NCBI GenBank assembly: GCA_963842155.1
Contig: CAWJFP010000034.1
Span: forward strand, 5,514 to 69,513
Direction of reading: 5' to 3'
Length of the DNA stretch: 64,000 nt
DNA from: an uncultured Pseudomonadota bacterium
GTDB taxonomy: Bacteria > Pseudomonadota > Alphaproteobacteria > JACZXZ01
Part shown: piece after piece, positions 2,937-46,974 of the stretch
Position numbering within the stretch: position 1 is the stretch's first letter
Layout of the letters: each line of letters starts with the position of its first letter
Position numbers and translations under genes: made by a program
The notes under the pieces: model-generated
Told to the model about the DNA's origin: nothing
The model's input: only the letters and a program-made list of their open reading frames with translations
Database searches by the model: none

Positions 2937-3009
2937 GGCCCCATCGTCTAGTGGCCAAGGACACCACCCTCTCAAGGTGGAGACACGGGTTCGAATCCCG
3001 TTGGGGCTG
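2937..3009 (+). tRNA. tRNA-Glu, anticodon CTC
   Basis: Cloverleaf read by eye: acceptor GGCCCCA/TGGGGCT (G1-U72 wobble), D-arm TCGTCTAGTGGCCAAGGAC, anticodon stem CCACC/GGTGG with loop CTCTCAA (anticodon CTC), T-arm ACGGG-TTCGAAT-CCCGT, discriminator G, no encoded CCA. Confidence 0.8.
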
Positions 3010-4909
3010 CGATAAACCTGCAGGTAAACGCCTTGAAATCCCATCGGGCGGGTAGGAAACGGGCCGATCTGCTACTCGAATTGCTACTGCCGCACAGCGG
3101 ACCACTACCGTCTGGGCAGATCACCAACCGGTAGGTAGGCGCAGTGCAAGGTCACGTCCGCCAACACGGCGAGAACAGCTGGGAGCTCCGGGTCTACGTC
3201 GGACGCGGACGCGACTACGAAGCGGGCGCGGTACAAGACGCGGACCTTCAAGGGCTCCAAGCGCGACGCCGACCGGGCCATCCGCGCCTTCCTGGCCGAG
3301 GTGGACCGAGGAGTCATCAGCGAGGGCACCTTCGGGGAGCTGCTCGAGCGCTGGTTCGAGGTGGCGTGGACGACGCGGGACTGGTCGCCCAAGGGCATCG
3401 CCGAGACGAGGCGGATCATCGACACCAGGCTCGGCGTCCTGTCGCCGATCACGCTCGACAAGCTCCGGACGCCGATCATCGACCGTTACTACGCGCAGCT
3501 GCGGACGCACGGTGGCGCCTGCGGACACCGGCCCCGTCAGTCGCACGACGGTGACCTGTGCGAGGTCGGCCACCCGCTCTCGACCGCCACCGTCCGTCGC
3601 ATACACGCCGTGATTCACTCGGTGCTCGAGCAGGCGGTCGCCTGGGACATGCTGATGTTCAATCCGGCGTCCAAGGCCTCGCCCGGGCGGATCGACTCTC
3701 CCGAGATCACGTCACCTGAGGTCGATGAAGTGCTCAAGCTGATTGCCGCGGCCCGGGAGACCGACCCGGATTTTCGCGGTTTATCTGGTTGTCTCGGCCG
3801 TGACCGGGGCGCGCCGGGGGAGATCTGCGCGCTCCGGTGGACCGACTTCGACAGCAGCAATGCGACGGTGCGTTTCGCCCGGGCCATCTCGATCGGGACG
3901 GAGGGTCCGGTGGAACGACAGAAGCCGAAGACCCGTTCCTCGGTTCGTACCGTGGCCCTCGATGCCGCCACCACATCCATCCTGGACGCGCACCGGGCGC
4001 GCTGTGCCGAACGGGCACTCGCCTGCGGTGTCCCATTGCCGAAGTCGGCCTTCGTGTTCTCCGACGAAGCCGACGGGTCGGCTCCGTGGCGGCCGGATTC
4101 GACTACCCGACGATTCGCGACTCTGCGCAAACGTTGCGGACTCGACAAGAGCATCCACCTCCACAGCCTCCGGCATTTCGTGGTGACGACCTTGCTGAAC
4201 GCGGGTGTCGAGCTTCCGGAGGTCGCCGGCCGAGTCGGCCACGGCGGAGGAGGAAGGACCACGCTCACCGTCTACTCCCACTTCAAACCGGCGAGGGACC
4301 GCCATGCGGCCGATTACCTCGGTCAGCTACTCGCTGTTCCCGACGGCGACAACGTCTAAGGGCCCTCGAATTCCGATAGGCGTGCAGCGAGCTCTCGATC
4401 GGGGCTGCCAAGGCGCTTGTAGAGAGGCCCGCATGGCGTCTCGCTCAAACGCAACGAGAGCATCAGAAGCGGCTGTTCGGGGGAATCGTCTCGGTACACC
4501 TGGCCGAGGTAACCGAACTCATTCATGACTCCCACCACACTGCGGTTAGCAGTCTTGGCCAGCCGCCATTCGCCCATTCCGGTCAACTCGGCGGCTATGA
4601 GGCTGGACTAGCTCAGTCCGCGTGCCAACACTTCTCCGAGGACTCTGAGAAGCGGGCAATGACAGTGGTCGCCGGAGCCAACGGGATGAGGATGGAAACA
4701 AGGTCGACTCGTTGACGAACAGGGCAACCTGGGGACGCCAGAAGAGGAAGTGGCGTACCAGTCGCCCAGGGCCGTGGTCGACCTCTCTTCAGTCTGATGA
4801 GGCTCGGTCTTGAGGCGATCGAGCAGTCGCTTCGTGCCGTGGACGATCAGCATCTGGCTTAGGGGCCGCCGGCTCACCGACTAGCCCGGCTCGGAGTCGT
4901 CGACAGAGG
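3010..4909 (+). mobile_element. Probable degraded integrative-element remnant: integrase next to the tRNA 3' end, followed by ~550 bp with no convincing gene and a truncated neighbouring gene
   Basis: Classic tRNA-then-integrase arrangement. The integrase is frameshifted. The adjacent lldD-like gene keeps only its N-terminal 140 codons. No attR repeat of the tRNA 3' end was found by eye. Confidence 0.35.
3144..4359 (+). pseudogene. int: Tyrosine recombinase / phage-type integrase with a frameshift near 3290
   Basis: The N-terminal frame has the integrase-type start (SWELRVYVGRGRD). The main frame (3301-4359) has the catalytic region HSLRHFVVTTLLNAGV...TVYSHF (HxLRH box, Tyr). A continuous reading needs a +1/-1 shift around 3290. 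Confidence 0.7.
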
Positions 4910-6850: not shown

Positions 6851-8451
6851 CCGAGGTCGTGGTCGATCTCATGACCGAGCCCGCCGGCGTCCCCCGGGCG
6901 CGCGCCATGCTGGAGAGGGCCCAGTGGGCCGCGCTCGCGTTCTCCCGCTACGACAAGGGCACTGTCGACCGCATCGTCTCGGCTGCCGCTCGAGCGGGAG
7001 CCGCCAAGGCCCGGGAGTACGCGGAATGGGCGGTGCGGGAGACCGGTTACGGCGTGGTCGAGCACAAGGTGCTGAAGAACCTCTCTTGCAGCACCGGGCT
7101 TGTCGAGGCCTACCGGGACCATGACTACGTGTCGCCGCGCTTTGATCCGATGGCGAAGATCCTCGAGATTCCACGGCCGGCGGGCGTCGTCCTGGCGCTC
7201 ACTCCTTCGACGAACCCGGTAGCGACCGTGTTCTTCAAGGCGCTGCTCTGCCTGATGACCCGCAGCGTCGTCATCGTGAGCCCCCATCCGAAGGCCAAGG
7301 GCGTCTGCGCCGACGCGGCCCGCACCTTGGCGGAGGCCGCGGTCGAAGCCGGGGCGCCCGACGGGGCGATACAGGTCGTCGACGAACCTTCGGTGCCGTT
7401 GATCAACGCCCTCATGACCGACGACCGCACCGACGTCATCGTCGCCACCGGCGGCACGGCCGTGGTCCGGAGTGCCTACAGCTCGGGCACACCCGCTATG
7501 GGGGTCGGGCCCGGCAACGTTCCCGTGCTGGTCGACCAGACCGCGGATCTTGCCCTGGCGGCAAAGCGAATCGTGGACTCGAAGAGCTTCGACAACTCGA
7601 TCCTGTGCACGAACGAGTCGGTGCTCATCTGCGAGCAGCCCGCCCTCGACAACCTCGTGCGGCACCTGCACCGAGAAGGCGCCTACATGCTCGCCGACGA
7701 GGAGCGGGACCGAGTACGCCAGCTTCTCTTCCCCAACGGGTCCTTCGACTTGCGCTTCATCGGCAAGGATGCCGCCTCGATCGCCGCCGAGGCCGGCGTC
7801 CGCGTCGGCGGCAATACTCGAATCCTCGTTGCGCCCTTCGATCTCGTCGTTCCCGAAGAGCCATTGGCACACGAGAAGCTGTGCCCGGTCCTCGGTCTCG
7901 TCGCCGTACCGAGCATCGACCGCGGGATAGAGGCCGCCCGGGCGGTGCTGCGCATCTCCGGCCCCGGGCACTCGGCGGCCATCCACAGCACGAATCCGAG
8001 GACGATCATGGACTATGGCGCAGCGGTGAGGGTGCTCCGGGTCGTGGTGAACGCCGGCAACAGCCTCGGAAGCTCGGGGATCGAGACGAACCTTGCGCTG
8101 ACGATGACGGTCGGGACGGGTTACTTCGGGCGGTCCTCCATGGCCGAGAACCTGCAACCCAAGCATCTGACCCAGATGACCCAAGTGGCCTACAACGCAA
8201 GCGCGGATGAGCCCTTCGGCAACTTCGCCGGCCTCACGCCCTGGGAGCAGCCACACGGACACGTGCCGCCGTACCCGTACGCGTCGAACCTGGTGCCGGC
8301 GGACGCGGGCCGGATGCCGGCGCGTTCGGCCGCGCAGGTCGGCGCAAACGCGCCGCCCGCGCAGGAACAGGTGACGGCCGAGGTGGCTCTGCTCCGCGAG
8401 GAGATCCGACGGATGGTTCTCGAAGAGCTCAGCCTGATCGCGAAGCGGTAG
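6847..8451 (+). CDS. CoA-acylating aldehyde dehydrogenase (EutE/PduP-like, BMC type) with an ~80-aa C-terminal extension ending in an amphipathic helix
   Basis: 534 aa. ILCTNESVLI catalytic Cys region. The C-terminus reads ...EQVTAEVALLREEIRRMVLEELSLIAKR. Confidence 0.8.
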   Translation: MTEVVVDLMTEPAGVPRARAMLERAQWAALAFSRYDKGTVDRIVSAAARAGAAKAREYAEWAVRETGYGVVEHKVLKNLSCSTGLVEAYRDHDYVSPRFDPMAKILEIPRPAGVVLALTPSTNPVATVFFKALLCLMTRSVVIVSPHPKAKGVCADAARTLAEAAVEAGAPDGAIQVVDEPSVPLINALMTDDRTDVIVATGGTAVVRSAYSSGTPAMGVGPGNVPVLVDQTADLALAAKRIVDSKSFDNSILCTNESVLICEQPALDNLVRHLHREGAYMLADEERDRVRQLLFPNGSFDLRFIGKDAASIAAEAGVRVGGNTRILVAPFDLVVPEEPLAHEKLCPVLGLVAVPSIDRGIEAARAVLRISGPGHSAAIHSTNPRTIMDYGAAVRVLRVVVNAGNSLGSSGIETNLALTMTVGTGYFGRSSMAENLQPKHLTQMTQVAYNASADEPFGNFAGLTPWEQPHGHVPPYPYASNLVPADAGRMPARSAAQVGANAPPAQEQVTAEVALLREEIRRMVLEELSLIAKR

Positions 8452-8453
8452 CG

Positions 8454-9056
8454 ATGGCCGAGCTCCGATCGTTCATCTTTCTCGACCGGCTGCAACCGCA
8501 GACGATGTGCTATCTGGGCACCTGGATCCGCGGCAGCCTGCCCCGGAGCGACGTCGCCGCCCAGATCATCGAGATCGCGCCCGGGCTCGACATCGAGCCG
8601 CTCACCGACGTCGCGCTCAAGCACGCGGAGGTACGAGCCGGCATCCTCGTCGTCGAGCGACAGTTCGGCTACCTCGAGATCCACGGGAGCACCGACGAGG
8701 TGCGCGCGGCCGCGGCGGCGGTTCTCGAAGCGCTCGGAGCCACCGCACGCGAGGCCACGAGCCCCGAGATCCTCGCATCGAGGATCATCACGATGCTCGA
8801 TCCCCAGCACGCGTTTCTCATCAACCGCAACAAGATCGGCTCGATGGCGCTCCCGGGTGAGTCGCTCTTCGTTCTCGAGGTGCAGCCGGCGTCCTACGCC
8901 ATCCTTGCGGCGAACGAGGCGGAGAAAGCCGCTCAGGTCAAGGTCGTCGACTACCGGATGATCGGCGCGACCGGGCGCGTGTACCTGTCGGGTCGAGAGT
9001 CCGACGTGCGTCAGGCCGCGACCGCCGCCGAGACAGCCCTTGGGAGTCGGCGATGA
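8454..9056 (+). CDS. BMC shell protein with two BMC-like domains in tandem (BMC-T-like), intact
   Basis: Both halves align to the BMC-H core. DVALKHAEVRAGILVVERQFGYLEIHGSTDEVRAAAAAV and AILAANEAEKAAQVKVVDYRMIGATGRVYLSGRESDVRQAATAA compare with [39 protein letters not shown] of the adjacent BMC-H. Confidence 0.6.
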   Translation: MAELRSFIFLDRLQPQTMCYLGTWIRGSLPRSDVAAQIIEIAPGLDIEPLTDVALKHAEVRAGILVVERQFGYLEIHGSTDEVRAAAAAVLEALGATAREATSPEILASRIITMLDPQHAFLINRNKIGSMALPGESLFVLEVQPASYAILAANEAEKAAQVKVVDYRMIGATGRVYLSGRESDVRQAATAAETALGSRR

Positions 9057-18761: not shown

Positions 18762-18956
18762 ATGAAGGTCACGGTCGATCCTGAGCGCTGCCAGGGCCAC
18801 AATCGTTGTCACGTGCTGGTGCCCGAGATCTTCGACGTCGACGAGCTCGGCTATGCCGTCGTCACGATCCCCGAGGTGCCCGAGCACCTTGTCTCCCGAG
18901 TTCTCGAGGCGGCGCGTAACTGCCCGGAGCGGGCGATCGCAACAGATCAGCCCTGA
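18762..18956 (+). CDS. Small ferredoxin, partner of the P450
   Basis: 64 aa. MKVTVDPERCQGHNRCHVLVPEIFDVDE...ARNCPERAI is a Fdx-type Cys pattern, immediately 3' of the CYP. Confidence 0.7.
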   Translation: MKVTVDPERCQGHNRCHVLVPEIFDVDELGYAVVTIPEVPEHLVSRVLEAARNCPERAIATDQP

Positions 18957-18962
18957 TTGGGG

Positions 18963-18996
18963 TGCGCCGGGCGGCCGGCGGGTGTTTCGAATTTCG
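18963..18996 (+). terminator. Candidate intrinsic terminator after the ferredoxin: CGCCGG-gcgg-CCGGCG followed by GTGTTTCGAATTTCG
   Basis: Perfect 6-bp GC stem with a tetraloop and a T-rich tail 9 nt after the stop. Confidence 0.35.
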
Positions 18997-19080
18997 CTCA
19001 AACTTGCCTCGGCAAAACATTGCAGTCGCAATATTTTCCAGAGGGTGCGTCACGAACACTGAAGGAGGAGTTCGTTTCAT

Positions 19081-19800
19081 GGCCCGGAGGTTCCCGGACT
19101 GCCCCTTCGAGCGCTACGCCGACGATGCTGTCGTGCACTGTGTGAACAGGCACCAGGCCGAAGAGGTGCTTTCGGCCATCGCCGAGCGGATGGGAGAGGT
19201 GGGCTTAAAGCTGCACCCGGACAAGACGCGGATCGTCTACTGCAAAGACGGTGCGCGCCGTGGGCACAACGAGCACACCTCGTTCACCTTCCTTGGTTAC
19301 ACCTTTCGGACACGGGAGGCGGTCAACCCCGGGAACGGGGTGCACTTCACCGGTTTCCTGCCTGCGATGAGCACCGAGGCGCTCAAGGCCAAAGGGGCAG
19401 AGCTGCGTGCCATGCGGATACACCGGCACACTGGCTCGTCCCTAGATGACCTCGCCCAATGGCTGAACCCCATAGTCAGGGGATGGATGACCTACTACGG
19501 CCGGTTCTACCGGTCGGCGATGGCTCCCCTCCTGCAGCGTGTCAATTCCTACCTGAGGCGCTGGGCCGGGAAGAAGTATCGGCGACTGCAGACCTACAGG
19601 AGCTTCAAGCGGTGGTGGACCGGACTGGTCGATCGACAGCCCGGTCTGTTCGCCCAGTGGCGCTGGGTCCGTGCGGTCTGACTTGCAGACCGATGAGAAG
19701 AGCCCGGTGACGGGAGACTGTCACGCCGGGATCTGTGGGAGCCGGGGGCTGAGATGCCCCCGGCCACCCGACCAAGTGCGGGCGCGGGCGTTTTTTTAAA
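19081..19800 (+). mobile_element. Group II intron 3' remnant: an N-terminally truncated intron-encoded protein (begins at the YADD motif, then thumb/X maturase domain, 19081-19681) plus a downstream domain-V-like hairpin GAGCCGGGGGC-tgagat-GCCCCCGGCC
   Basis: MARRFPDCPFERYADDAVVHC (RT domain 5 with YADD)...LNPIVRGWMTYYGRFYRSAMAPLLQRVNSYLRRWAGKKY (maturase X-domain signature). RT domains 0-4 are absent. A GC hairpin starting with G-AGC-C lies ~65 nt after the stop. Confidence 0.55.
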
Positions 19801-37975: not shown

Positions 37976-39760
37976 TCAATAAAGCGCATCCAGCGCCGCG
38001 CCGTAACGCTCGCGAATGACATGGCGGCGGATTTTCAAAGACGGCGTCAACATGCCGTTCTCGATGGCGAAGGCCTCGGGCGCGAGGATGAAGCGGCGCA
38101 CCCGCTCGATCGGCGATAGCCTGGCATTGACCCGCTCGACGGCCTCGCCCACGGCGTCGTGCAGTTCCTTGTCGGCGGTGAGCGCCGCAAGCTCGGCGGG
38201 CCTGCCGCGCGCGGCGGCCCATTCGGCGAGGAAATCGGGATTCGGCACCAGCACCGCCACGAGATAGGGCCTGCGGTCGCCCTGCACCATCGCCTGCGCG
38301 ATCTCGGGCTCGAGAGTGAGGAAACCCTCCACCCGCTGCGGCGACAGATTGTCGCCGCCCGAGTTCACGATGATGTCCTTCTTGCGGTCGGTGATCTGGA
38401 TATAGCCGTCCTCGTCGAGGCGGCCGATATCGCCGGTATGCAGCCAGCCGTCGCGCAAGGCCAGCGCGGTGCCGTCCGGATCGTTCCAATAGCCCTTCAT
38501 GACCAGCTCGCCCCGCACCAGGATCTCGCCGTCCTCGGCGACGCTCACCTCGACGTCCTTGAGCGGCGGGCCGACGGTATGGAGCTTGATACGGTCCGGC
38601 GGGTTCACGCTGATCACCGGCGCCGCCTCCGTCTGGCCATAGCCTTGCAGCAAACGGAGACCGAGTGCTGTGAAGAAGACGCCGATCTCGGGATTGAGCG
38701 GCGCGCCGCCCGAGACGAGCGCCTTGAGCCTGCCGCCGAAGCGGCCCCGTACCTTGCGCCGCACCAGGAGATCGAGCAGGAGGTCGGCAAGGCGCTCGAC
38801 CAAGCTCAGGCTCTTCGGGTCCTTGTAGCGCTTGGCGCCGAGCTCGAGCGCCTTCCAGAAAAGCGTCGCACGCAACCCGCCCTGGCGCTTGATGGCGCTA
38901 AGGATGCGGCCATGCAGCGTCTCGTAGAGCCGCGGCACCGCGGTCATGATGGTGGGCCGCGCTTCGAGCATGTTCACGGCGAGCGTCTCGGCGCCCTCGG
39001 CATAGTAGATCTCGGCGCCGACGGAGATGGGGAAGAACAGGCCGGCCGCATGCTCATAGGCATGGGAGAGCGGCAGGAAGGAAAGGAAGCGCTCATGCTC
39101 GAGGCCGAGCTGGCGCAGCACGATCTCGGCGCCCATGCAGTTGCAGATGATGGCGCCGTGGCTCAAGGTGACGCCGCGCGGAATGCCGCCGGTGCCCGAG
39201 GTGTGGATGACGCAGCAGCTGTCGCCGCGCTCGATGCCGGCGACGAGGGTCTGCATGTCGTCGGGCGCGAGCGCGCCCTTGACGAGCAGCGCCTCCCAGC
39301 CCAATACCTCGACGCCGGGAAACTGCGCGAGCCCGAGCGGCTCGATCGCCACCACGAACCGAAGGCTGGGTGCCTGACGCGCGGCGGCGAGCAGCGGACC
39401 CGCGAGCTTGCGGGTCGAGACGATCGCCGCCTTGGCCCCGGTGTTGGTCAGGATATGGCGGTGGTCGTCGATGGTATTGGTGATATAGCCCGGCACCGTG
39501 ATCGCGCCCGCGGCCATGATGGCGAGATCGGCGATGACCCATTCGGGACGGTTCTCGGCGATGAGCGCCACCCGGTCGCCGCGCGCGATGCCTTGCGCGC
39601 GAAGTCCCCGCGAGAGCCGGCTCACCAGCTCCACCGCTTCGCGCCAGCTCATCGGGCGGTAGACGCCCTCCCGCTTCGCCCAGAGGAAGGGACGCTCGCC
39701 GCGCTCGGCCGCGCGATCGAGAAACATGCGGACGAGGTTGGGAACCGCCTTGTAGTCCAT
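37976..39760 (-). CDS. fadD: Long-chain fatty-acid--CoA ligase (AMP-dependent synthetase)
   Basis: 594 aa from MDYKAVPNLV... AMP-binding motifs IHTSGTGGIPRG, YGQTEA and ITDRKKDII. Confidence 0.8.
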   Translation of the reverse strand: MDYKAVPNLVRMFLDRAAERGERPFLWAKREGVYRPMSWREAVELVSRLSRGLRAQGIARGDRVALIAENRPEWVIADLAIMAAGAITVPGYITNTIDDHRHILTNTGAKAAIVSTRKLAGPLLAAARQAPSLRFVVAIEPLGLAQFPGVEVLGWEALLVKGALAPDDMQTLVAGIERGDSCCVIHTSGTGGIPRGVTLSHGAIICNCMGAEIVLRQLGLEHERFLSFLPLSHAYEHAAGLFFPISVGAEIYYAEGAETLAVNMLEARPTIMTAVPRLYETLHGRILSAIKRQGGLRATLFWKALELGAKRYKDPKSLSLVERLADLLLDLLVRRKVRGRFGGRLKALVSGGAPLNPEIGVFFTALGLRLLQGYGQTEAAPVISVNPPDRIKLHTVGPPLKDVEVSVAEDGEILVRGELVMKGYWNDPDGTALALRDGWLHTGDIGRLDEDGYIQITDRKKDIIVNSGGDNLSPQRVEGFLTLEPEIAQAMVQGDRRPYLVAVLVPNPDFLAEWAAARGRPAELAALTADKELHDAVGEAVERVNARLSPIERVRRFILAPEAFAIENGMLTPSLKIRRHVIRERYGAALDALY

Positions 39761-39841
39761 CGTTTCCTCAGGCGCCCCGCCCGGGCTTCTAAGGCCAGGC
39801 CGGGCCGGGGACGCCGCCGCTTTCTTGCCATGTCCCGGCGA

Positions 39842-39869
39842 TGGACGGAAGCGCCAAGAGCTTGGCGCG
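39842..39869. repeat. Left copy of the exact 28-bp direct repeat TGGACGGAAGCGCCAAGAGCTTGGCGCG, which contains the hairpin GCGCCAAG-ag-CTTGGCGC
   Basis: Identical to 41935-41962. Confidence 0.75.
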
Positions 39870-40032
39870 CGGGCGAGATCCTGGTGGCGCGTATTCGCCG
39901 CGCTGGGTCGCCGCTCGCGCAATTTGCCGATGCGGCAAAGCCGTGGGTCGTCACCGGCGGGCGTGCAGAACCTGGTCACGCCACGGCGGGACGGCCCGGA
40001 AACGCTGCATGAGACTTGATTTTTGTAACCTG

Positions 40033-40052
40033 ATACGTTATAGGTAACGTAT
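40033..40052. promoter_or_regulatory. Perfect palindrome ATACGTTA-tagg-TAACGTAT directly abutting the higB start (candidate HigA operator)
   Basis: Read directly. Confidence 0.4.
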
Positions 40053-40331
40053 ATGATTTTGAGGTTTCGCCATAAGGGACTGCAACGGTTGTTCGCTAGC
40101 GGCGACAGAAGTGGGGTGAGCCCTCGGCAGGCTACGCGGCTGAGCCACATGCTCGCTACGCTGGCCGCGAGCACGGAGCCAAGCGGCATGAATATGCCAG
40201 GATTCCGGCTCCATCCCCTCAAGGGTAATCGCAAAGGACAATGGGCCGTGTCGGTATCCGGGAATTGGCGGCTGGTGTTCGAATTTGACGGCGAGAATGC
40301 CACCAATGTTGACTTGATCGACTATCACTGA
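40053..40331 (+). CDS. higB: HigB toxin (RelE/ParE superfamily, 'killer protein')
   Basis: MILRFRHKGLQRLF...PGFRLHPLKGNRKGQWAVSVSGNWRLVFEFDGENATNVDLIDYH matches the canonical HigB. Confidence 0.75.
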   Translation: MILRFRHKGLQRLFASGDRSGVSPRQATRLSHMLATLAASTEPSGMNMPGFRLHPLKGNRKGQWAVSVSGNWRLVFEFDGENATNVDLIDYH

Positions 40332-40349
40332 CGAAAGGAGAGGCGAACC

Positions 40350-40646
40350 ATGAAGATGCACAATCCGCCGCACCCTGGGGCGATCATCCGGGAGGATTGC
40401 CTGGCTGCTCTGGGGTTGTCGGTCACCGACGCTGCCAAAGGGCTTGGCGTCACGCGAAAGGCACTATCCGAGCTGCTGAACGGCCATAGTGGCGTCTCGC
40501 CGGAGATGGCGATCCGGCTTGAAAAGGCCGGATGGAGCACGGCCGAGACGTGGCTGGGAATGCAATTGCAGCATGACCTGTGGCAGGCGCAGCGGAAAGC
40601 GAAAGGCATCAAGGTTTCACGGTTTAGACTGCCCACTGCGGCTTGA
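40350..40646 (+). CDS. higA: HigA antitoxin (XRE-type HTH)
   Basis: [65 protein letters not shown]. Confidence 0.75.
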
Positions 40647-40879
40647 GCCAGAGAGGGTTCAGTCGAATCCCCGTAAACCGGCAAGTGACGGGAGGTAAAA
40701 CCGGGGCGCTCATGGATACCCGCACCCAGCACCGCGACCGGGGACGAGCCGATGCGCGATATTGCCCCGCAATTACAGCGTTTCCCATAGTACGATTTCA
40801 AGGCTGACGGCATGAGCACCGGGTTGGTCGCCAGGCTGAATGCTCCGATGCGGTCATTTTTTCCTGACAGCAAGGTGCG

Positions 40880-41848
40880 ATGAACCCACACCCCCATATT
40901 CCCGCCGATATGCGGGCCGCAATCGATAAATTCTCCAATAGAGCTGATGGCATAGTTAACGCATTTGCTCGTGAGTTGGGAGAGCGACCTCCGCCGCCTA
41001 TCATCTATCACTATACAAATGATGCGGGATTAAGGGGAATTGTCGAGACGGGCAGACTTTGGTTCACCGATATTTTTAATCTCAACGATCCGACCGAATT
41101 GAAGCACGGCATCGGACCGGCCATAGAATTGTTAAACGCCGAATCCGACGATGCGCGGCCGGAGATCAAGCAATTTTGCAAGAACCTAGACGCGATTCTG
41201 CATGGCGGAAATGAGCAGACGGCCCATTATTTTATCTGCTCGTTCAGTAGCGCCGGGGATGATCTTGGACAATGGCGCGCTTACGCCGACAACGGGCGTG
41301 GCTATGCCATAGGCTTTGCAGCGGCCACGCTCGAACAGGCCTTTGCGATGGCGAGGCCAGGACCGGGCAATATGACCTTTCCCGTCAGTTATGGCGAAAA
41401 TGAACTGCGCGGTATGCACAGGAGCATTCTCGCGGAGGTCATGCCGCTGATATCAATGCCGCGCGGTAGACGGGACCTAGAAAGCAAAGCACTGAACGAC
41501 TATATGAGCGAATTGCTAGTCAGCTTATCCGTGCCGATTTTGCGGGCCGCATTATTTTTCAAACACAAGGCCTACAGCAACGAGCAGGAATATAGGTTTT
41601 TCCAATTGTTCGCGGCCGGACAGGAGATCCCGGATCTTAAATATCGGGGTCGGCCGTATTCGTTGACGCGGTATCGAGAATTTGATTGGCGTGCGGCAGC
41701 CCCAGAATCGCTGAAGCAAATTATCATTGGACCGGCCGCCGATAAAAAGCTCGCCTTCCAGTTCGCCAACGATTGCCTGCGCGCGTTTCACTCGACGCCG
41801 AGAATCGTCTCGATTAATCCGTCAACTATCCCCTACAGGGCACCGTGA
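40880..41848 (+). CDS. DUF2971-family protein
   Basis: 322 aa. IIYHYTNDAGLRGIVETGRLWFTDIFNLNDPTEL is the DUF2971 N-terminal signature. Clearly lower GC than the neighbours. Confidence 0.6.
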   Translation: MNPHPHIPADMRAAIDKFSNRADGIVNAFARELGERPPPPIIYHYTNDAGLRGIVETGRLWFTDIFNLNDPTELKHGIGPAIELLNAESDDARPEIKQFCKNLDAILHGGNEQTAHYFICSFSSAGDDLGQWRAYADNGRGYAIGFAAATLEQAFAMARPGPGNMTFPVSYGENELRGMHRSILAEVMPLISMPRGRRDLESKALNDYMSELLVSLSVPILRAALFFKHKAYSNEQEYRFFQLFAAGQEIPDLKYRGRPYSLTRYREFDWRAAAPESLKQIIIGPAADKKLAFQFANDCLRAFHSTPRIVSINPSTIPYRAP

Positions 41849-41934
41849 GGCTTGCCTGCTACGCCATTTCGAGCTTGTTCGATGGCCGGCACAAGGCCGG
41901 GCATGACGATTGATGGTCGTATCGATAATCCTGT

Positions 41935-41962
41935 TGGACGGAAGCGCCAAGAGCTTGGCGCG
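41935..41962. repeat. Right copy of the 28-bp direct repeat
   Basis: Identical to 39842-39869. Confidence 0.75.
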
Positions 41963-42006
41963 GCGGCGCCGAAGCCCTATATCGCAGGGACTGCAAGGGA
42001 GCGATC

Positions 42007-43804
42007 ATGGCCGACACGGGACGCAACGCTGCGGCGAGCAATCTGGGCCGCTTGCCCGAATGGGATCTGAGCGATCTTTATCCAGGGCCCGAATCGCCCG
42101 AGCTCAAGGCCGACCTCGAGCGCGCGGCCAAGGACGCGGCCACGTTCGCGAAACAATATCAGGGCCGGCTCGCCGCCCTCTCCGGCGCCGAGCTCGCCGA
42201 GGCCATCGCCCGCTATGAGCGCCTCTCCGAGACGCTCGGGCGCCTCTCGAGCTATGCCGAGCTGCGCCATGCCGCGGCGACGAGCGATCCCGTGATCTCG
42301 CGCCAGACCCAGGACATGCGCGAGCGGGTGACCGACATTTCGGCCGCGACGCTCTTCTTCACGCTCGAGCTCAACCGGCTCGAAGACGCGAAGCTCGAGC
42401 CGCTCTTCGCCGCGCCCGCGCTGGCGCGCTATCGCCCCTGGCTCAGGGATTTGCGCGCCTTCCGCCCGCACCAACTCTCCGACGAGGCCGAGCAGCTCTT
42501 GCATGACAAGTCGGTGGCCGGCCGCGCGTCCTGGGTGCGGCTCTTCGACGAGACCTTGGCCGATCTGCGCTATCCGATCGGGGGGAAGGAGCTCACCGGC
42601 TCCGAGGCGCTCAACCTGCTCTCGGACAAGGACCGCGCGTTGCGCCGCGACGCGGCGCAGTCGATCGCGAGCGTCCAGGCGCGCAATATCCGCCTCTTCG
42701 GCCTTATCACCAACACGCTCGCCAAGGACAAGGAGATCGAGGACCGCTGGCGCCATTTCCCGACGCCGATGGCCTCGCGCCATCTCGCCAATCATGTCGA
42801 GCCCGAGGTGGTGGAGGCGCTGGTGAGCGCGGTGAAAGCAGCCTATCCGCGCCTCTCGCACCGCTATTACCGCATCAAGGCGCGCTGGCTCGGGCTCGAG
42901 CGGTTGGAATATTACGACCGCAACGCGCCGCTGCCGGACGACGACGATCGCGAAATCCCCTGGGACGAGGCGCGGGCGACCGTGCTCGAGCGCCTATGGC
43001 GCCTTCGCGCCCGAGATGGCGGCGGAGGCCGGGCGCTTCTTCGAGCGGCCCTGGATCGACGCGCCGGTGCGGCCCGGCAAGGCCTCGGGCGCCTTCTCCC
43101 ATCCCACCGTGCCGAGCGCGCATCCCTATGTTTTGCTCAACTATCAGGGCAAGACGCGCGACGTGATGACGCTCGCCCACGAGCTGGGCCATGGCGTGCA
43201 CCAGCTCCTGGCCGGCCCGCAAGGCTATTTCCTCTCCGACACGCCGCTCACCCTTGCCGAGACGGCCAGCGTCTTCGGCGAGATGCTGACCTTCCAGGCC
43301 ATACTGCGCGCGGAGAAGGACCCGCGTCGGCGGCGCGCCATGCTCGCCTCCAAGGTCGAGGACATGATCAACACGGCGGTGCGCCAGATCGCCTTCTACG
43401 AGTTCGAGCGCCAAGTCCATCTGGAGCGCCGCAAGGGCGAGCTCACGGCGGAGCGCCTCGGCGAGATCTGGCTCGGCGTGCAAGGTGAGAGCCTGGGCGA
43501 CGGCATCCGCCTCGAGGACGAGTACAAGGTCTACTGGTCCTATATCCCGCATTTCATCCATTCGCCCTTCTATGTCTATGCCTATGCCTTCGGCGATTGC
43601 TTGGTGAACTCGCTCTACGCCGTCTATGAGCGGGCCGAGCCGGGTTTCCAGGCGAAATATCTCGACATGCTGCGGGCGGGCGGCACCTTGCACCACAAGG
43701 AGCTGTTGGCGCCCTTCGGCCTCGACGCCTCCGACCCCGCCTTCTGGGCGCGCGGGCTCGAACTCCTCGCGCGCTTCATCGACGAGCTCGAGGCGGGGTC
43801 CTAG
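42007..43804 (+). pseudogene. pepF: Oligoendopeptidase F (M3B family) with a single frameshift near 43010
   Basis: N-terminal ORF to about 43010, then ORF 43016-43804 with HELGHGVH (HExxH zinc motif) and the rest of the M3 fold. The two join with a 1-nt shift (ATVLERLW / YGAFAPEMAAEAGRFFERPWID). Confidence 0.7.
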
Positions 43805-45202
43805 GTGGCGCGCAAGGCCCCCGGGCAGCCACGCGCCGCGGTCGCGGCGGAGGCGCCGCGCGACGCCGAGCCGAGCACGCTCGGCGGGCGGGTCAGGCGC
43901 TATGCCCGCGTCGGGCGCGCGGTCGGCGGGCTCGCCGTGGAGCTCGCGGGCAAGCGCTATCTTGGGCTCAAGCTCGACCGCTCGCGCCATGCGGGCGAGC
44001 TCGCGGGCGCGCTCGGCGGGCTCAAAGGCCCGCTCATGAAGGTGGCCCAGCTCCTCTCCACCATCCCCGACGCGCTGCCGCGAGAATATGCGGCCGAGCT
44101 CGCAACCTTGCAGGCCAACGCGCCCGCCATGGGCTGGCCCTTCGTCAAGCGCCGCATGGCGGCCGAGCTGGGGCCCGACTGGCAGGCCAAGTTCGCGCGC
44201 TTCGAGCATGAGGCGGCCCGCGCCGCCTCGCTCGGCCAGGTCCATCGGGCGACGGCACGCGACGGCAGGCCGCTCGCCTGCAAGCTGCAATATCCCGACA
44301 TGGCCTCGACCGTGGCGGCCGACTTGCGCCAGCTCAAGCTCGTCTTTGCCATCTATGAGCGCTACGACAAGGCGATCTCGACGCGTCAGATCCATGCCGA
44401 GATCGCCGAGCGGCTGGGCGAGGAGCTCGACTATGCGCGCGAGGCCAAGCATATGCGCCTCTATGGCGACATGCTGGCGCGCGAGCCGGGCGTGCATGTG
44501 CCCGAGGTGGTGCCTCCGCTCTCGACCCGCCGGCTCCTCACCATGACCTGGCTCGAGGGCGCGCCCTTCCTCGAGGCAAAGTCCTGGCCGCTCGCGAAGC
44601 GCAACCGCATCGCCTTCAACATGTTCCGCGCCTGGTACGTGCCGTTCTACGACTACGGCGTCATCCATGGCGACCCCCATCTCGGCAACTACACGGTGCG
44701 GCCGGACGGCTCGGTCAATCTGCTCGATTTCGGCTGCATCCGCGTCTTCCCCACCAAGTTCGTGCGTGGCGTGATCGACCTCTATTGGGCCTTGCGCGAG
44801 GAGGACGAGGCGCGCGCCGTCCATGCCTATGAGAGTTGGGGCTTCACGAAGCTGAGCCGGCCGGTGATCGACACGCTCAATCTCTGGGCGCGCTTCGTCT
44901 ATGCGCCGCTGATGGAGGACCGCGAGCGGCGGATCGAGGAGACGAACTCGGGCAATTACGGCGCGCAGGTCGCCGAGAAGGTGCATGGCGAGCTGCGCCG
45001 GCTGGGCGGCGTCACGCCGCCGCGCGAGTTCGTGTTGATGGATCGCGCCGCCATCGGGCTCGGCTCGGTCTTCCTCCATCTTCAGGCCGCGATCAACTGG
45101 CATAGGCTTTTTCACGACCTGATCGACGGTTTCGACGAGAAGGCGCTGCAGCGCCGGCAGAAGGCGGCGCTCGAACGCGCCGGGCTGCCGGCACCGGCTT
45201 GA
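43805..45202 (+). CDS. ABC1/UbiB-family atypical kinase
   Basis: 465 aa. AASLGQVHRA...HGDPHLGNY...LLDFGCI are kinase-like motifs. Confidence 0.7.
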   Translation: MARKAPGQPRAAVAAEAPRDAEPSTLGGRVRRYARVGRAVGGLAVELAGKRYLGLKLDRSRHAGELAGALGGLKGPLMKVAQLLSTIPDALPREYAAELATLQANAPAMGWPFVKRRMAAELGPDWQAKFARFEHEAARAASLGQVHRATARDGRPLACKLQYPDMASTVAADLRQLKLVFAIYERYDKAISTRQIHAEIAERLGEELDYAREAKHMRLYGDMLAREPGVHVPEVVPPLSTRRLLTMTWLEGAPFLEAKSWPLAKRNRIAFNMFRAWYVPFYDYGVIHGDPHLGNYTVRPDGSVNLLDFGCIRVFPTKFVRGVIDLYWALREEDEARAVHAYESWGFTKLSRPVIDTLNLWARFVYAPLMEDRERRIEETNSGNYGAQVAEKVHGELRRLGGVTPPREFVLMDRAAIGLGSVFLHLQAAINWHRLFHDLIDGFDEKALQRRQKAALERAGLPAPA

Positions 45203-45230
45203 TGCGGAATTCCGACCCAAATGGCCGCGC

Positions 45231-45503
45231 ATGGCGCTAGACTTGGGTATGGAGCGGGAAGCCGTCGCGGCCAAAGTCTATGTCGTGAACGCCGAATGGG
45301 ACGACGAAGCCCAGGTCTGGGTCGCGACCAGCGACGACGTGCCCGGACTGGTAGCCGAAGCCGACACGCTAGAGGCGCTCGACCGTGAGATTCGGGCGCT
45401 CGTGCCCGAGCTGCTCGTCCTTAACGGGGCGATCAAGGAAGACCGCGCGACAGTGCCGGTCGAGCTCGTCGCCCGAAAGCGCGAGCATGTCGTTATCTCG
45501 TAA
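45231..45503 (+). CDS. DUF1902 (HicB-like fold) small protein. No HicA-like partner recognised nearby
   Basis: VYVVNAEWDDEAQVWVATSDDVPGLVAEADTLEAL. The overlapping antisense ORF 45369-45578 did not resemble HicA. Confidence 0.45.
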   Translation: MALDLGMEREAVAAKVYVVNAEWDDEAQVWVATSDDVPGLVAEADTLEALDREIRALVPELLVLNGAIKEDRATVPVELVARKREHVVIS

Positions 45504-45834
45504 GCTGTGAGCGGCTTTGCGGGTAATGTTCGGGATATATTGAAGGCTGCCGGTTGCGCAAAAAATCCGCGACGGCAAGGGGAGTCACGAAATTTGGCGA
45601 AGTCTCATAAGCGGACGGCATTTTCCCGTGCCCACGAAGATCAAATCGCGTCACACTGCTAACGAGATTCTAAAGCAGGCAGGCTTGCGCAAAAGATTTT
45701 AAATTTCTGAGGCGGTCGCCTATCTCCGTGATCGGCTCTTGACCGCCAACTAGCCCTTCACAAAGATCGCGGGAGCGGGCATTGTGGCGCCCGCTTCGAA
45801 CCGCGCGGCCGAGCGTCGAGGGGATCGTCCCGCC

Positions 45835-46974
45835 ATGAAGATCGCCATACCGAAGGAGCGCCGCGAGCATGAGCGGCGCGTCGCGGCCACGCCCGAGACG
45901 GTGCGCAAGTTCGCGGGTCTCGGACTGACCGTCGCCGTCGAGGCGGGCGCCGGCGCGGGCGCCTCGTTCGGTGACGAGGCCTACGCCGCTGCGGGGGCCG
46001 CGATCCTGGCCGACGAGGCGGCGCTGCTCGGCGATGCCGACATCGTCCTCAAGGTGCAGCGGCCCCTGACTGGGGCCGAGGGCGGGCCGGACGAGCTCGC
46101 CTTGCTGAAGCGCGGCGCCGTCCTTGTCGCTCAATTGGCGCCTTATCAGAGCCGCGAGCAGATCAAGGCCTACGCCGCTTCCGGCGTCTCCGCTTTCGCC
46201 ATGGAGCTGATGCCGCGCATCTCGCGCGCGCAATCGATGGACGTGCTCTCCTCGCAGGCGAATCTCGCGGGTTACAAGGCCGTGCTCGATGCGGCGGTCG
46301 AGTTCGGCAAGGCCTTTCCCATGATGATGACGGCGGCGGGCACCGTGGCACCCGCGCGCGTGCTCGTGCTCGGCGTGGGCGTCGCCGGGCTGCAAGCGAT
46401 CGCGACCGCGCGCCGGCTCGGCGCCATCGTCTCCGGCTATGACGTGCGTCCCGCCGTGAAGGAGCAGGTGCAGTCCCTCGGCGCCGCCTTCGTCGAGGTC
46501 GACGAGGCGGCGACCAAAGAGGCGGAGACGGCCGGCGGCTACGCCAAGGAGATGAGCGAGGAATACAAGCAGAAGCAGGCGCAGGTGTTGCGCGAGCATT
46601 TGAAGAAGCAGGACGTGGCAGTCGCCACCGCGCTTATCCCGGGCCGCCCGGCGCCCGTGCTGATCACCGAGGAGATGGTGAGGGAGATGAAGCCCGGCTC
46701 GGTGATCGTCGATCTCGCGGTCGAGGCCGGCGGCAACTGCCCGCTCTCCGAGCTCGGCAAGGTGGTGGTGAAGCATGGCGTCACCATCGTCGGCCACGCC
46801 AACTATCCGAGCCGGATCGCGGTCGACGCCAGCGCGCTCTATGCCCGCAATCTCTTCAACTTCCTTTCGCCCTTCGTCAAGGCGGGTGCCCTCGAGATCG
46901 CCTGGGACGACGAGCTGGTGAAGGGCACGCTGCTGACGCGCGACGGCGCCGTCGTCCATCCGAATTTCGTCTAG
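45835..46974 (+). CDS. pntAA: NAD(P) transhydrogenase alpha subunit, part 1
   Basis: MKIAIPKERREHERRVAATPETV, an Ala-dehydrogenase-like dI domain, VLVLGVGVAGLQA. Confidence 0.85.
   Translation: MKIAIPKERREHERRVAATPETVRKFAGLGLTVAVEAGAGAGASFGDEAYAAAGAAILADEAALLGDADIVLKVQRPLTGAEGGPDELALLKRGAVLVAQLAPYQSREQIKAYAASGVSAFAMELMPRISRAQSMDVLSSQANLAGYKAVLDAAVEFGKAFPMMMTAAGTVAPARVLVLGVGVAGLQAIATARRLGAIVSGYDVRPAVKEQVQSLGAAFVEVDEAATKEAETAGGYAKEMSEEYKQKQAQVLREHLKKQDVAVATALIPGRPAPVLITEEMVREMKPGSVIVDLAVEAGGNCPLSELGKVVVKHGVTIVGHANYPSRIAVDASALYARNLFNFLSPFVKAGALEIAWDDELVKGTLLTRDGAVVHPNFV

Follow-up and report, generated by a model that had tools for sequence, protein, structure and literature searches.

A foreign toxin-antitoxin and likely anti-phage cassette bounded by 28-bp direct repeats in the fadD-pepF control region of an uncultured alphaproteobacterium

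The fadD-pepF region and its insert

The DNA analysed here, referred to as the window, is a 64-kb stretch of a metagenomic contig from an uncultured alphaproteobacterium. Within it, the divergently oriented core genes fadD and pepF are separated by a 2065-bp insert that carries three genes and is enclosed by two exact copies of the 28-bp sequence TGGACGGAAGCGCCAAGAGCTTGGCGCG, both on the plus strand and spaced 2093 bp apart. The features of the region are as follows.

37976..39763, minus strand: fadD-like gene for a long-chain acyl-CoA ligase (AMP-binding; PF00501, E 7e-71), left flanking core gene
39764..39841: native fadD-proximal intergenic part, including the conserved block CTTTCTTGCCATGTCCCGGCGA; aligns with the intergenic regions of relatives
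39842..39869, plus strand: left 28-bp repeat copy, attL-like or left target-site duplication; native motif, contiguous with the fadD side
39851..39868: 18-nt palindrome, GCGCCAAG-AG-CTTGGCGC, within the left repeat
39870..40016: GC-rich leader of the insert (147 bp, GC 0.70)
40017..40052, plus strand: candidate higBA promoter, CTTGAT-N17-TTATAG, read by eye (GC 0.31)
40053..40331, plus strand: higB, toxin of the RelE/HigB fold, 92 aa (PF05015, profile positions 2-91 of 91, E 1.4e-16)
40350..40646, plus strand: higA, HTH_3 antitoxin, 98 aa (TIGR02607 equivalog, 100.8 bits, cutoff 47.7; PF01381)
40880..41848, plus strand: gene for a DUF2971 protein, 322 aa (PF11185, 42 bits, cutoff 22), DarT-like ADP-ribosyltransferase fold
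41849..41934: insert tail, with no homology found and no terminator-like site in a terminator scan
41935..41962, plus strand: right 28-bp repeat copy, attR-like or right target-site duplication; contiguous with the pepF side
41944-41961: second occurrence of the 18-nt palindrome, within the right repeat
41954..41982, plus strand: pepF promoter, CTTGGC-N17-CTATAT, found in 16 loci
42007..43804, plus strand: pepF (oligoendopeptidase F, M3 family), right flanking core gene, with a +1 frameshift near 42988

Each repeat copy is joined directly to its own native flank, and similarity between the two continues beyond the 28 identical positions, reaching 34 nt at 94%. The pair is the sole long exact direct repeat in the entire window, in which no third copy was detected at up to 3 mismatches; shuffled sequences likewise contained no match (0/100). 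As single-stranded DNA, the palindrome within the repeat folds with an energy of -8.5 kcal/mol (z = -2.9). A role for this hairpin as a terminator or RNA was considered and rejected, given that the terminator scan called no T-tract terminator at the repeats and that Rfam returned no match to the hairpin. The right copy contains the -35 hexamer of the pepF promoter (CTTGGC, 41954-41959). The complete promoter pattern occurs once in the window and, across 16 loci (the window and 15 relatives), is invariant in spacing and variable in spacer sequence. In relatives, pepF is a 600-aa ORF; in the window, it is split by the frameshift.

In its composition, the insert is foreign, with a GC content of 56.6% as compared to 66.9% for the window, the 40-42 kb stretch being the lowest-GC part of the latter. 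The DUF2971 gene is at 0.53 and higBA at 0.57-0.61, with the drop in GC starting at about position 40017, 147 bp inside the left repeat. The leader preceding this point matched no RNA family and showed no homology to any sequence compared, and neither it nor the spacer and tail yielded any sign of a pseudogene, an RNA or a copy of host sequence. The insert is compact, comprising three intact genes without pseudogene debris. Neither a recombinase nor a transposase lies between the repeats, where the genes present encode only HigB, HigA and the DUF2971 protein. Terminal inverted repeats were likewise not found, the best inverted alignment of the inner 80-nt ends scoring 10 as compared to a shuffle mean of 13.3, and repeats of the arm type could not be demonstrated either. 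An independently assembled Logan contig (1558 bp) matches the cassette interior at 99.87%. A preliminary description of this DNA had thus correctly given the exact repeats and their positions, the hairpin within them, the order higB-higA-DUF2971 between fadD and pepF, and the lack of a recombinase in the cassette; its designation of the cassette as lower in GC holds for the insert as a whole and for the DUF2971 gene in particular, and fails for the first 147 bp.

Two possible connections of the cassette were examined and set aside. For a plasmid origin, there were only weak matches (66-74%), these being to higBA genes. The sole integrase found in the window (3139-4356) lies beside tRNA-Glu, 36 kb from the cassette, and its presumed target, the tRNA 3' end, bears no likeness to the 28-mer.

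The first two genes of the insert present the features of a type II toxin-antitoxin module, both being intact, with the toxin gene first and 18 bp between them. HigB matches PF05015 over its full length (61 bits, cutoff 27). The candidate higBA promoter overlaps the palindrome ACGTTA-TAGG-TAACGT, a putative HigA operator, judging from its sequence; a simple promoter scan instead gave a weak pair, CTGATA-N16-TATGAT, at 40030-40057.

The product of the third gene is matched by the PADLOC candidate PDC-S31 models (E 1e-8) and contains the conserved Y of motif II and ExE of motif III that characterize the ADP-ribosyltransferase fold (PMC12522546). DUF2971 is, moreover, a domain of the experimentally validated anti-phage system Aristaios (PMC11381338). 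On these grounds, the protein is likely a single-gene abortive-infection defence of the Aristaios/PDC-S31 type. The cargo as a whole is of the defence or addiction type, in line with the connection to anti-phage defence islets drawn in the preliminary description. Homologues of 65-78% identity occur beside DruA and a T4SS coupling protein, beside a reverse transcriptase and a trypsin-like protease, in a prophage beside a resolvase, and between housekeeping genes. Homology among these loci stops at the ORF boundaries, and neither higBA nor long flanking repeats were found at them. A conserved three-gene unit was rejected, with higB, higA and the DUF2971 gene occurring together nowhere else and each being a singleton at 90% identity among approximately 15 billion proteins.

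Empty sites in related loci

The comparison with empty sites that the preliminary description had proposed was made with 15 loci from uncultured Alphaproteobacteria, the FadD proteins of which are 67-78% identical to that of the window. In 15/15, the fadD orthologue and pepF are adjacent and divergent, with 144-173 bp between them, and in all 15 the intergenic region contains a single homologous motif and no gene cassette. With the insert and one of the repeats taken away, the fadD-pepF spacer of the window shrinks to 150 bp, as compared to 151 bp in one relative (L001). Because relatives carry one motif and no cassette, and because the window collapses to 150 bp, the 28-bp repeat is, on comparison of these sequences, a duplication of the native target, and the repeats mark the cassette boundaries, as previously suggested. 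The motif takes a lineage-specific form in the window, where the 28-mer departs from the sequences of relatives at about 5 positions and by an indel.

In those relatives covered by a scan of genome contigs, the motif occurs once per genome, always at fadD-pepF. Wherever else the genome, metagenome and viral scans gave a match, it falls inside a long ORF. Twelve chance matches lie in higA-like genes, in which the motif pattern encodes the helix-turn-helix peptide EAAKxLG and the local peptide context is as in the Desulfobacteraceae higA of loci L017 and L022; such matches were judged to be a coincidence of coding. The proposal that the repeat is REP-like did not survive these scans, nor did that of cassette exchange, given that 0/15 related sites hold a gene cassette and that its genes are linked nowhere else.

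In a separate observation, a MITE was found at the same motif in three loci (L005, L033 and L084), flanked by the 9-bp duplication AACGCTTGG; another locus (L036) presents the corresponding empty site.

Routes by which the cassette could have entered

What is seen at this locus is one horizontal acquisition, in which 2.1 kb of foreign DNA, comprising a toxin-antitoxin module and likely anti-phage cargo, came to lie in the fadD-pepF control region with 28 bases duplicated. As to the route, att-type integration of a foreign segment at fadD-pepF, catalyzed by a recombinase that acted in trans or has since been lost, and leaving a CIME-like islet, is tentatively preferred on the basis of the sequence features described above. 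In such a scheme, the 2065-bp segment (leader, higB-higA and DUF2971 gene) would have entered once, and recently, into the 150-bp divergent control region, borne by a small circular element with an attachment site matching the chromosomal 28 bp and integrating site-specifically. The 18-nt palindrome, with its arms flanking a short asymmetric centre, would serve as the recombinase core; in sequence, at least, it has the shape of a core site of this kind, being palindromic except for its short centre. Segments of identity of 28 bp are within the usual range for att cores. With the recombinase provided in trans or later lost, what would remain is a recombinase-less islet bounded by attL and attR, as in the established concept of a CIME (PMC5704250). 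The pepF -35 box lies within the 28 bp that were duplicated, so that neither flanking gene has lost any of its upstream region, and this probably explains why the insertion is tolerated. Family membership suggests that HigBA may stabilise the islet as an addiction module and that the DUF2971 enzyme may by itself provide defence through abortive infection, while recombination between the repeats would permit precise loss of the islet.

Against att-type integration, no recombinase is linked to the site within the 64-kb window, and no second element using the motif as an attachment site was found in the 15 relatives or in any collection searched. Moreover, the compact insert, free of gene debris, is unlike a decayed ICE or IME. 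Finally, with the 28-mer being lineage-specific, only a very close relative could have supplied a matching attP, while exact identity follows automatically if the repeat is a target-site duplication. A repeat with the native target on both sides fits an att core and a long target-site duplication equally well. The latter, which is the main rival and is itself considered somewhat improbable, would involve 28-nt staggered cuts, made in trans by an enzyme of the nuclease or transposase type, with foreign DNA being joined in before the gaps were filled; the candidates are IS4/IS1634-like transposases, given to duplications that are long and variable, and a Cas1-like integrase of the ruler type, by which a segment of repeat length is duplicated. 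In its favour, the repeat is wholly native and exact despite being lineage-specific, no matching site on the element is needed, and the same motif was independently struck by the MITE with its 9-bp duplication. Furthermore, in CRISPR adaptation and with casposons, a site of defined length that is cut in staggered fashion at either end gives a repeat-insert-repeat layout, and the order seen here, namely repeat with hairpin, insert and repeat, is that expected of such cuts. By contrast, the insert has neither terminal inverted repeats nor a transposase, the homologues of DUF2971 seen in other genomes lack long flanking repeats, and 28 bp far exceeds the duplications known for nearly all bacterial transposons. 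The Cas1 or casposon version faces the further difficulty that the normal Cas1-Cas2 insert is about 33 bp, while casposons have terminal inverted repeats and generate 14-15-bp duplications.

General recombination or repair, without any dedicated mobile-element enzyme, is regarded as unlikely. One such event would be a Campbell-type crossover, mediated by RecA, in which a circle released from the genome of a close relative recombined with the 28-34-bp site; others would be a switch of template during replication at the hairpin, or the capture of a linear fragment by Ku/LigD end-joining where a break had left staggered ends. The imperfect extension of similarity beyond the repeat is in agreement with this, as is the nature of the cargo, a mosaic of differing GC with genes unlinked elsewhere. 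In addition, hicB-hicA-like genes (45203-45836) lie in a neighbouring intergenic region without long repeats, such that recombinase-free insertion seems to occur in this genome; alignment of that region to relatives is too divergent to place the limits of the hicBA-like insertion. Heterologous DNA has been captured by NHEJ in an alphaproteobacterium, yet the junctions so formed were mostly deletions rather than clean duplications (PMC6379672). Likewise, 28 bp is inefficient for homologous recombination, and a repeat-bearing circle merely pushes the question of origin one step back. No donor sequence, from which microhomology at the junctions could be read, was found in any collection searched.

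It is highly improbable that dispersed REP-like or regulatory copies came to flank the cassette by chance or that the arrangement is an artefact of assembly of the metagenome-assembled genome. While the hairpin is a REP trait, and while frameshifts in pepF and the hicA-like ORF of this metagenomic contig suggest error-prone reads, the 64 kb of the window hold no copies other than the two at the cassette boundaries, and the occurrence of the motif once per scanned relative, with other matches being coding coincidences, speaks against dispersal. At the same time, mis-assembly alone could not yield an exact, lineage-specific 28-mer common to chromosome and insert, and the cassette interior was assembled independently. 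Very slight, too, is the likelihood that the repeats are the footprint of an undescribed insertion route, relying on a ruler-type (Cas1- or casposase-like) integrase or on a host recombinase acting on promoter palindromes. Were this true, small defence or toxin-antitoxin cassettes could be loaded into intergenic regions with the promoters on both sides being regenerated.

Comparison with known systems

Taken as a whole, the islet represents a clean but fairly ordinary horizontal gene acquisition, seen at just one locus of one metagenome-assembled genome, without recurrence. Still, it offers an unusually clean case of a defence or addiction islet placed in the control region of core genes without harm: 15 relatives show the empty site, the -35 box of a conserved promoter lies within the duplicated segment, and the cargo pairs a DarT-like DUF2971 enzyme with HigBA. 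If the repeats are sites for a recombinase acting in trans, this would suggest that soil Alphaproteobacteria harbour integrative cassettes of a very small and non-autonomous kind; if they are instead a 28-bp target-site duplication, the enzyme responsible would be of interest.

In terms of its cargo, the islet can be likened to the lactococcal Aristaios system (316 aa; PMC11381338), with which the DUF2971 protein shares the domain, the ADP-ribosyltransferase fold and a similar size, and, as with PDC-S31, homologues found in defence or mobile contexts (DruA, reverse transcriptase-protease, prophage). The likening is by domain and fold, with the gene of the window differing in being chromosomal and beside HigBA. 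DarTG differs, with identity at just 13-16% and large helical inserts, and the cassette includes no gene for a DarG macrodomain antitoxin, the neighbouring antitoxin HigA belonging to HigB.

In terms of its boundaries, the islet was compared to several repeat-associated systems. REP/BIME elements were rejected, with only 2 copies in 64 kb even at 3 mismatches and a single copy in scanned relatives. Integron cassettes similarly present small, promoter-less-looking cargo, often toxin-antitoxin modules, hairpin repeats and no recombinase of their own. The islet differs in that its repeats are 28 bp of native promoter DNA rather than an attC of 57-141 bp, in that array, integron integrase and attI are absent, and in that higBA has its own candidate promoter. 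Although GTTGGAC at the right junction fits GTTRRRY, the left junction does not and the attC structure is absent; as for an integron integrase, the integrase of the window scores 20.8 bits against TIGR02249, for which the cutoff is 265.

IMEX and the dif modules of Acinetobacter are recombinase-less, a few kb long, often carry toxin-antitoxin genes and have 28-bp sites (PMC6449649, PMC13141974), such that the islet resembles these Xer-dependent elements in size, cargo, missing recombinase and bounding sites of 28 bp. A dif-type site, however, consists of two 11-bp arms, for XerC and XerD, that are separated by a centre of 6 bp and form a palindrome through their inner parts (PMC6449649). When the 28-mer is so divided (TGGACGGAAGC / GCCAAG / AGCTTGGCGCG), the arms are asymmetric about the centre, the true palindrome being 8-2-8 and off-centre, at positions 10-27, and the motif serves pepF as the -35 region of its promoter, being conserved between fadD and pepF across 16 loci. 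A dif/Xer site was thus rejected. No skew switch was seen at the cassette position within the 64-kb window, where such a search has weak power. The 28-mer is also unlike the proteobacterial dif core, which is AT-rich. Finally, dif modules are bounded by oppositely oriented pdif sites, whereas the repeats of the islet are direct.

MITEs and DDE transposons, such as the MITE found at the same motif, share with the islet a duplicated target, the same site and a restored pepF -35 box. The islet differs in its duplication of 28 bp rather than 9 bp, in its lack of terminal inverted repeats and in its three protein-encoding genes.

The remaining comparison is with CIMEs. The islet is only 2.07 kb long and holds no remnants of ICE or IME genes, the att nature of its repeats is putative, neither a cognate integrase nor any related element is known to belong to the site, and the insertion lies in a region of divergent promoters, not at the end of a gene. 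Derivation from an ICE or IME, which is part of the definition, is not borne out, the non-coding parts having no homology and neither the 15 sites nor the collection matches containing such an element. At the same time, integration and transfer genes are absent, as the definition of a CIME demands, and the islet, like a CIME, has direct repeats of the target at its ends, carries accessory cargo and would depend on a recombinase supplied in trans for any excision or mobilisation.

Composition of the repeat-bounded segment

Examination of the plus strand revealed the 28-mer TGGACGGAAGCGCCAAGAGCTTGGCGCG at two positions, 39842-39869 and 41935-41962, confirming the exact repeats that a preliminary description had placed at the ends of a gene cassette. 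No third copy was found in the 64-kb window when up to three mismatches were allowed, and none of 100 shuffled controls gave a match. The pair is the sole long exact direct repeat within the window, with imperfect similarity between the two copies reaching 34 nt. Each copy includes an 18-nt palindrome (GCGCCAAG-AG-CTTGGCGC; single-stranded DNA fold, -8.5 kcal/mol). The genes found here are also those originally listed, namely:

37976-39763, minus strand: fadD-like acyl-CoA ligase gene
40053-40331: higB
40350-40646: higA
40880-41848: DUF2971 gene
from 42007: pepF

Excluding the repeats, the insert (39870-41934; 2,065 bp) has a GC content of 56.6%, as compared to 66.9% for the window, with 40-42 kb being the lowest-GC stretch of the latter. 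The cassette thus deserves its earlier description as lower in GC when taken as a whole but not at its left boundary, since the 147 bp that follow the left repeat are 70% GC and the drop begins at the higB promoter. HigB matched PF05015 over its full length, while HigA reached the TIGR02607 equivalog cutoff. Upstream of higB, a promoter-like CTTGAT-N17-TTATAG and a perfect palindrome, ACGTTA-N4-TAACGT, were read by eye, with the palindrome serving as a putative HigA operator; a simple promoter scan of the same stretch returned another, weaker hexamer pair. An independent Logan assembly contig reproduced positions 40253-41810 at 99.87% identity. As previously noted, no recombinase is encoded between the repeats, nor is a transposase. 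Terminal inverted repeats were not found at the insert ends, and the leader, spacer, and tail of the insert matched neither an RNA family nor a protein family and revealed no homology to the fetched sequences.

Homologues of the DUF2971 protein sharing 65-78% identity occur in other mobile or defence contexts, namely beside DruA with a T4SS coupling protein, beside a reverse transcriptase with a trypsin-like protease, immediately 3' of a resolvase within a prophage, and amid housekeeping genes. In every context, homology stops at the ORF boundaries, and neither higBA nor long flanking repeats were found in the contexts examined. As such, the islet is a mosaic unique to the source genome. In the closest homologue with context (77% identity; Logan contigs L039-L042), the DruA gene is of the Druantia type and is accompanied by an HTH regulator, while the coupling protein is TraG/VirD4-like, neighbors that make this homologue part of a conjugative element with defence cargo. 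In the prophage-like region (L044:7433-9005), the gene for a small serine recombinase (Resolvase and HTH_7; 185 aa) precedes that of a homologue of 65% identity by 11 bp, and the two could form an operon; two tyrosine integrases and two transposases are also found in that region.

The empty site and the pepF promoter

The cargo proteins and FadD of the source genome, that of an uncultured alphaproteobacterium, are all singletons and have a single known source, a contig of 179,699 bp, with FadD of the nearest relatives being 67-78% identical to that of the window. Fifteen further fadD-pepF loci were gathered using homologous FadD proteins and a scan of genome and metagenome collections with the degenerate repeat-core pattern CGGAAGCGSCAARAN{0,1}GCTTGG. 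In each of the 15, fadD and pepF are divergent neighbors without a gene cassette between them, and exactly one motif homologous to the whole 28-mer (e.g., TTTACGGAAGCGGCAAAACGCTTGGCG) is present. The spacer measures 144-173 bp in 12 loci and 334-369 bp in L005, L033, and L084, owing to a small MITE. In the window, the left repeat directly joins the conserved fadD-side block CTTTCTTGCCATGTCCCGGCGA, the right repeat directly joins conserved pepF-side sequence, and removal of the insert and one repeat leaves 150 bp, as compared to the 151-bp spacer of relative L001. Together, this contiguity of the native flanks, the single motif in relatives, and the matching lengths show that the repeat is native target sequence lying on both sides of a 2,065-bp insertion. 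The empty site with a single repeat, envisaged earlier for related strains, was thus encountered at all 15 loci.

In all 16 loci, the motif ends in CTTGG(C/T), followed by exactly 17 variable nt and then by CTATAT, shortly upstream of the pepF start codon, an arrangement that matches the alphaproteobacterial sigma-70 consensus, CTTGAC-N17-CTATAT. The pattern occurs once in the window, at 41954, where it is built on the right repeat copy. As such, duplication regenerates the pepF -35 box beside its -10 box, and the left copy remains in place for any upstream role that the motif plays at fadD. The palindrome is lineage-specific, with relatives carrying a shorter, different dyad, AAGCG-N6-CGCTT. 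The data show one insertion event, recent by its composition, with 28 bp of native promoter DNA duplicated at its ends.

The MITE-like element (L005:9670-10000, L033:3701-4072, and the same site in L084; approximately 185-226 bp, with a terminal inverted repeat of approximately 15 bp, ATGGGTCAGTTT...) interrupts the same motif that is duplicated in the window, creating a 9-bp duplication, AACGCTTGG, that likewise restores the -35 box. Its empty site is seen in L036, and, compared with the L005 copy, those in L033 and L084 have 41 bp duplicated internally in tandem. That two insertions occurred independently at this spot, with the promoter kept both times, suggests tolerance by selection; the motif is perhaps also a structural hot spot for insertion.

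Surroundings of the insert

The 36-50 kb neighborhood is syntenic core genome. Here, an apparent extra C in CGCCTATGG (42985-42995) breaks pepF into two frames (42007-42987 and 42992-43801), reflecting either a real pseudogene or a MAG sequencing error; in relatives, pepF is a single 600-aa ORF. The next intergenic region, from the ABC1 kinase gene to pntA (approximately 230 bp in L001), contains a second toxin-antitoxin-like insertion (45203-45836), comprising a hicB-like antitoxin (DUF1902; ORF 45123-45503) and then a HicA-like frame that looks to have shifted at an A-run near 45560. Long direct repeats are absent from the flanks of this insertion.

A Pfam scan of candidate ORFs over most of the window revealed one tyrosine integrase (3139-4356; 406 aa), 36 kb from the insert and directly 3' of tRNA-Glu (CTC; 2937-3010). 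This integrase is presumably part of a tRNA-targeting island whose start is probably marked by the tRNA and integrase genes (2937-4356); no repeat of the tRNA-Glu 3' end of at least 20 nt was found within the window. Downstream, at 8211-9056, lie an ORF with a BMC (bacterial microcompartment shell) domain, an aminotransferase, and a fragment of an FMN-dehydrogenase, in a stretch where several ORFs lack a Pfam match. The scan also picked up, amid metabolic genes at 18920-19678, a truncated reverse transcriptase/maturase of a group II intron (C-terminal part of RVT_1 and GIIM).

Origin of the insertion

Of the origins initially proposed, a REP-like repeat finds little room, with only two copies in 64 kb. 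Relatives appearing in the genome-collection scan gave one match each, always at fadD-pepF, ruling out a dispersed repeat; all other matches obtained on scanning genomes, metagenomes, and viruses sit within long ORFs and are chance coding matches. Both a coincidental REP-like repeat and an assembly artefact are considered highly unlikely. Cassette exchange is likewise not supported, since no gene cassette occupies the 15 related sites and the three genes are unlinked elsewhere. The degenerate pattern also matches within Desulfobacteraceae higA (L017:5380-5622 and L022:7557-7799), at sequence coding for the HTH peptide EAAKxLG; the same local peptide context appears in 10 metagenome loci (L053, L055, L060, L069, L072, L078, L085, L105, L112, and L113), and a weaker echo, AAGGGCTTGGCG, in the window higA (40438-40449). 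These matches were judged to be coding coincidence.

Tentatively preferred is att-type integration, whereby a small circular element would have integrated at the palindromic core through a recombinase that acted in trans or has since disappeared, yielding an islet akin to a cis-mobilizable element (PMC5704250). The site has a fitting form and the identity segment a fitting length, and the repeats are possibly att-like; however, the cognate recombinase is missing, the site is not reused in any relative or collection searched, the insert holds no gene debris, and an incoming attP would need to match a lineage-specific 28-mer exactly. Such identity would follow automatically from the main rival, a true 28-bp target-site duplication generated upon staggered cleavage by an enzyme in trans, although this remains rather doubtful, with terminal inverted repeats missing and little precedent existing at 28 bp. 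Next in rank, and unlikely, comes general recombination or repair, whether through a Campbell-type crossover spanning 28-34 bp, a template switch at the hairpin, or Ku/LigD capture. Against the last of these, the only experimental study of NHEJ capture in an alphaproteobacterium reported mainly deletions at junctions, not clean duplications (PMC6379672).

The closest known recombinase-less cassettes are Xer/dif modules, which share 28-bp boundaries and toxin-antitoxin cargo; the 28-mer fails the test of their site architecture (PMC6449649). The repeat similarly fails as an integron attC site. That the 2,065-bp islet reveals a new insertion route is very improbable. It is a further case of a known kind, namely a small, horizontally acquired defence/addiction islet bounded by target duplication, useful in that no enzyme accounts for the 28-bp length of the duplication and in that this duplication demonstrably preserves a conserved promoter.
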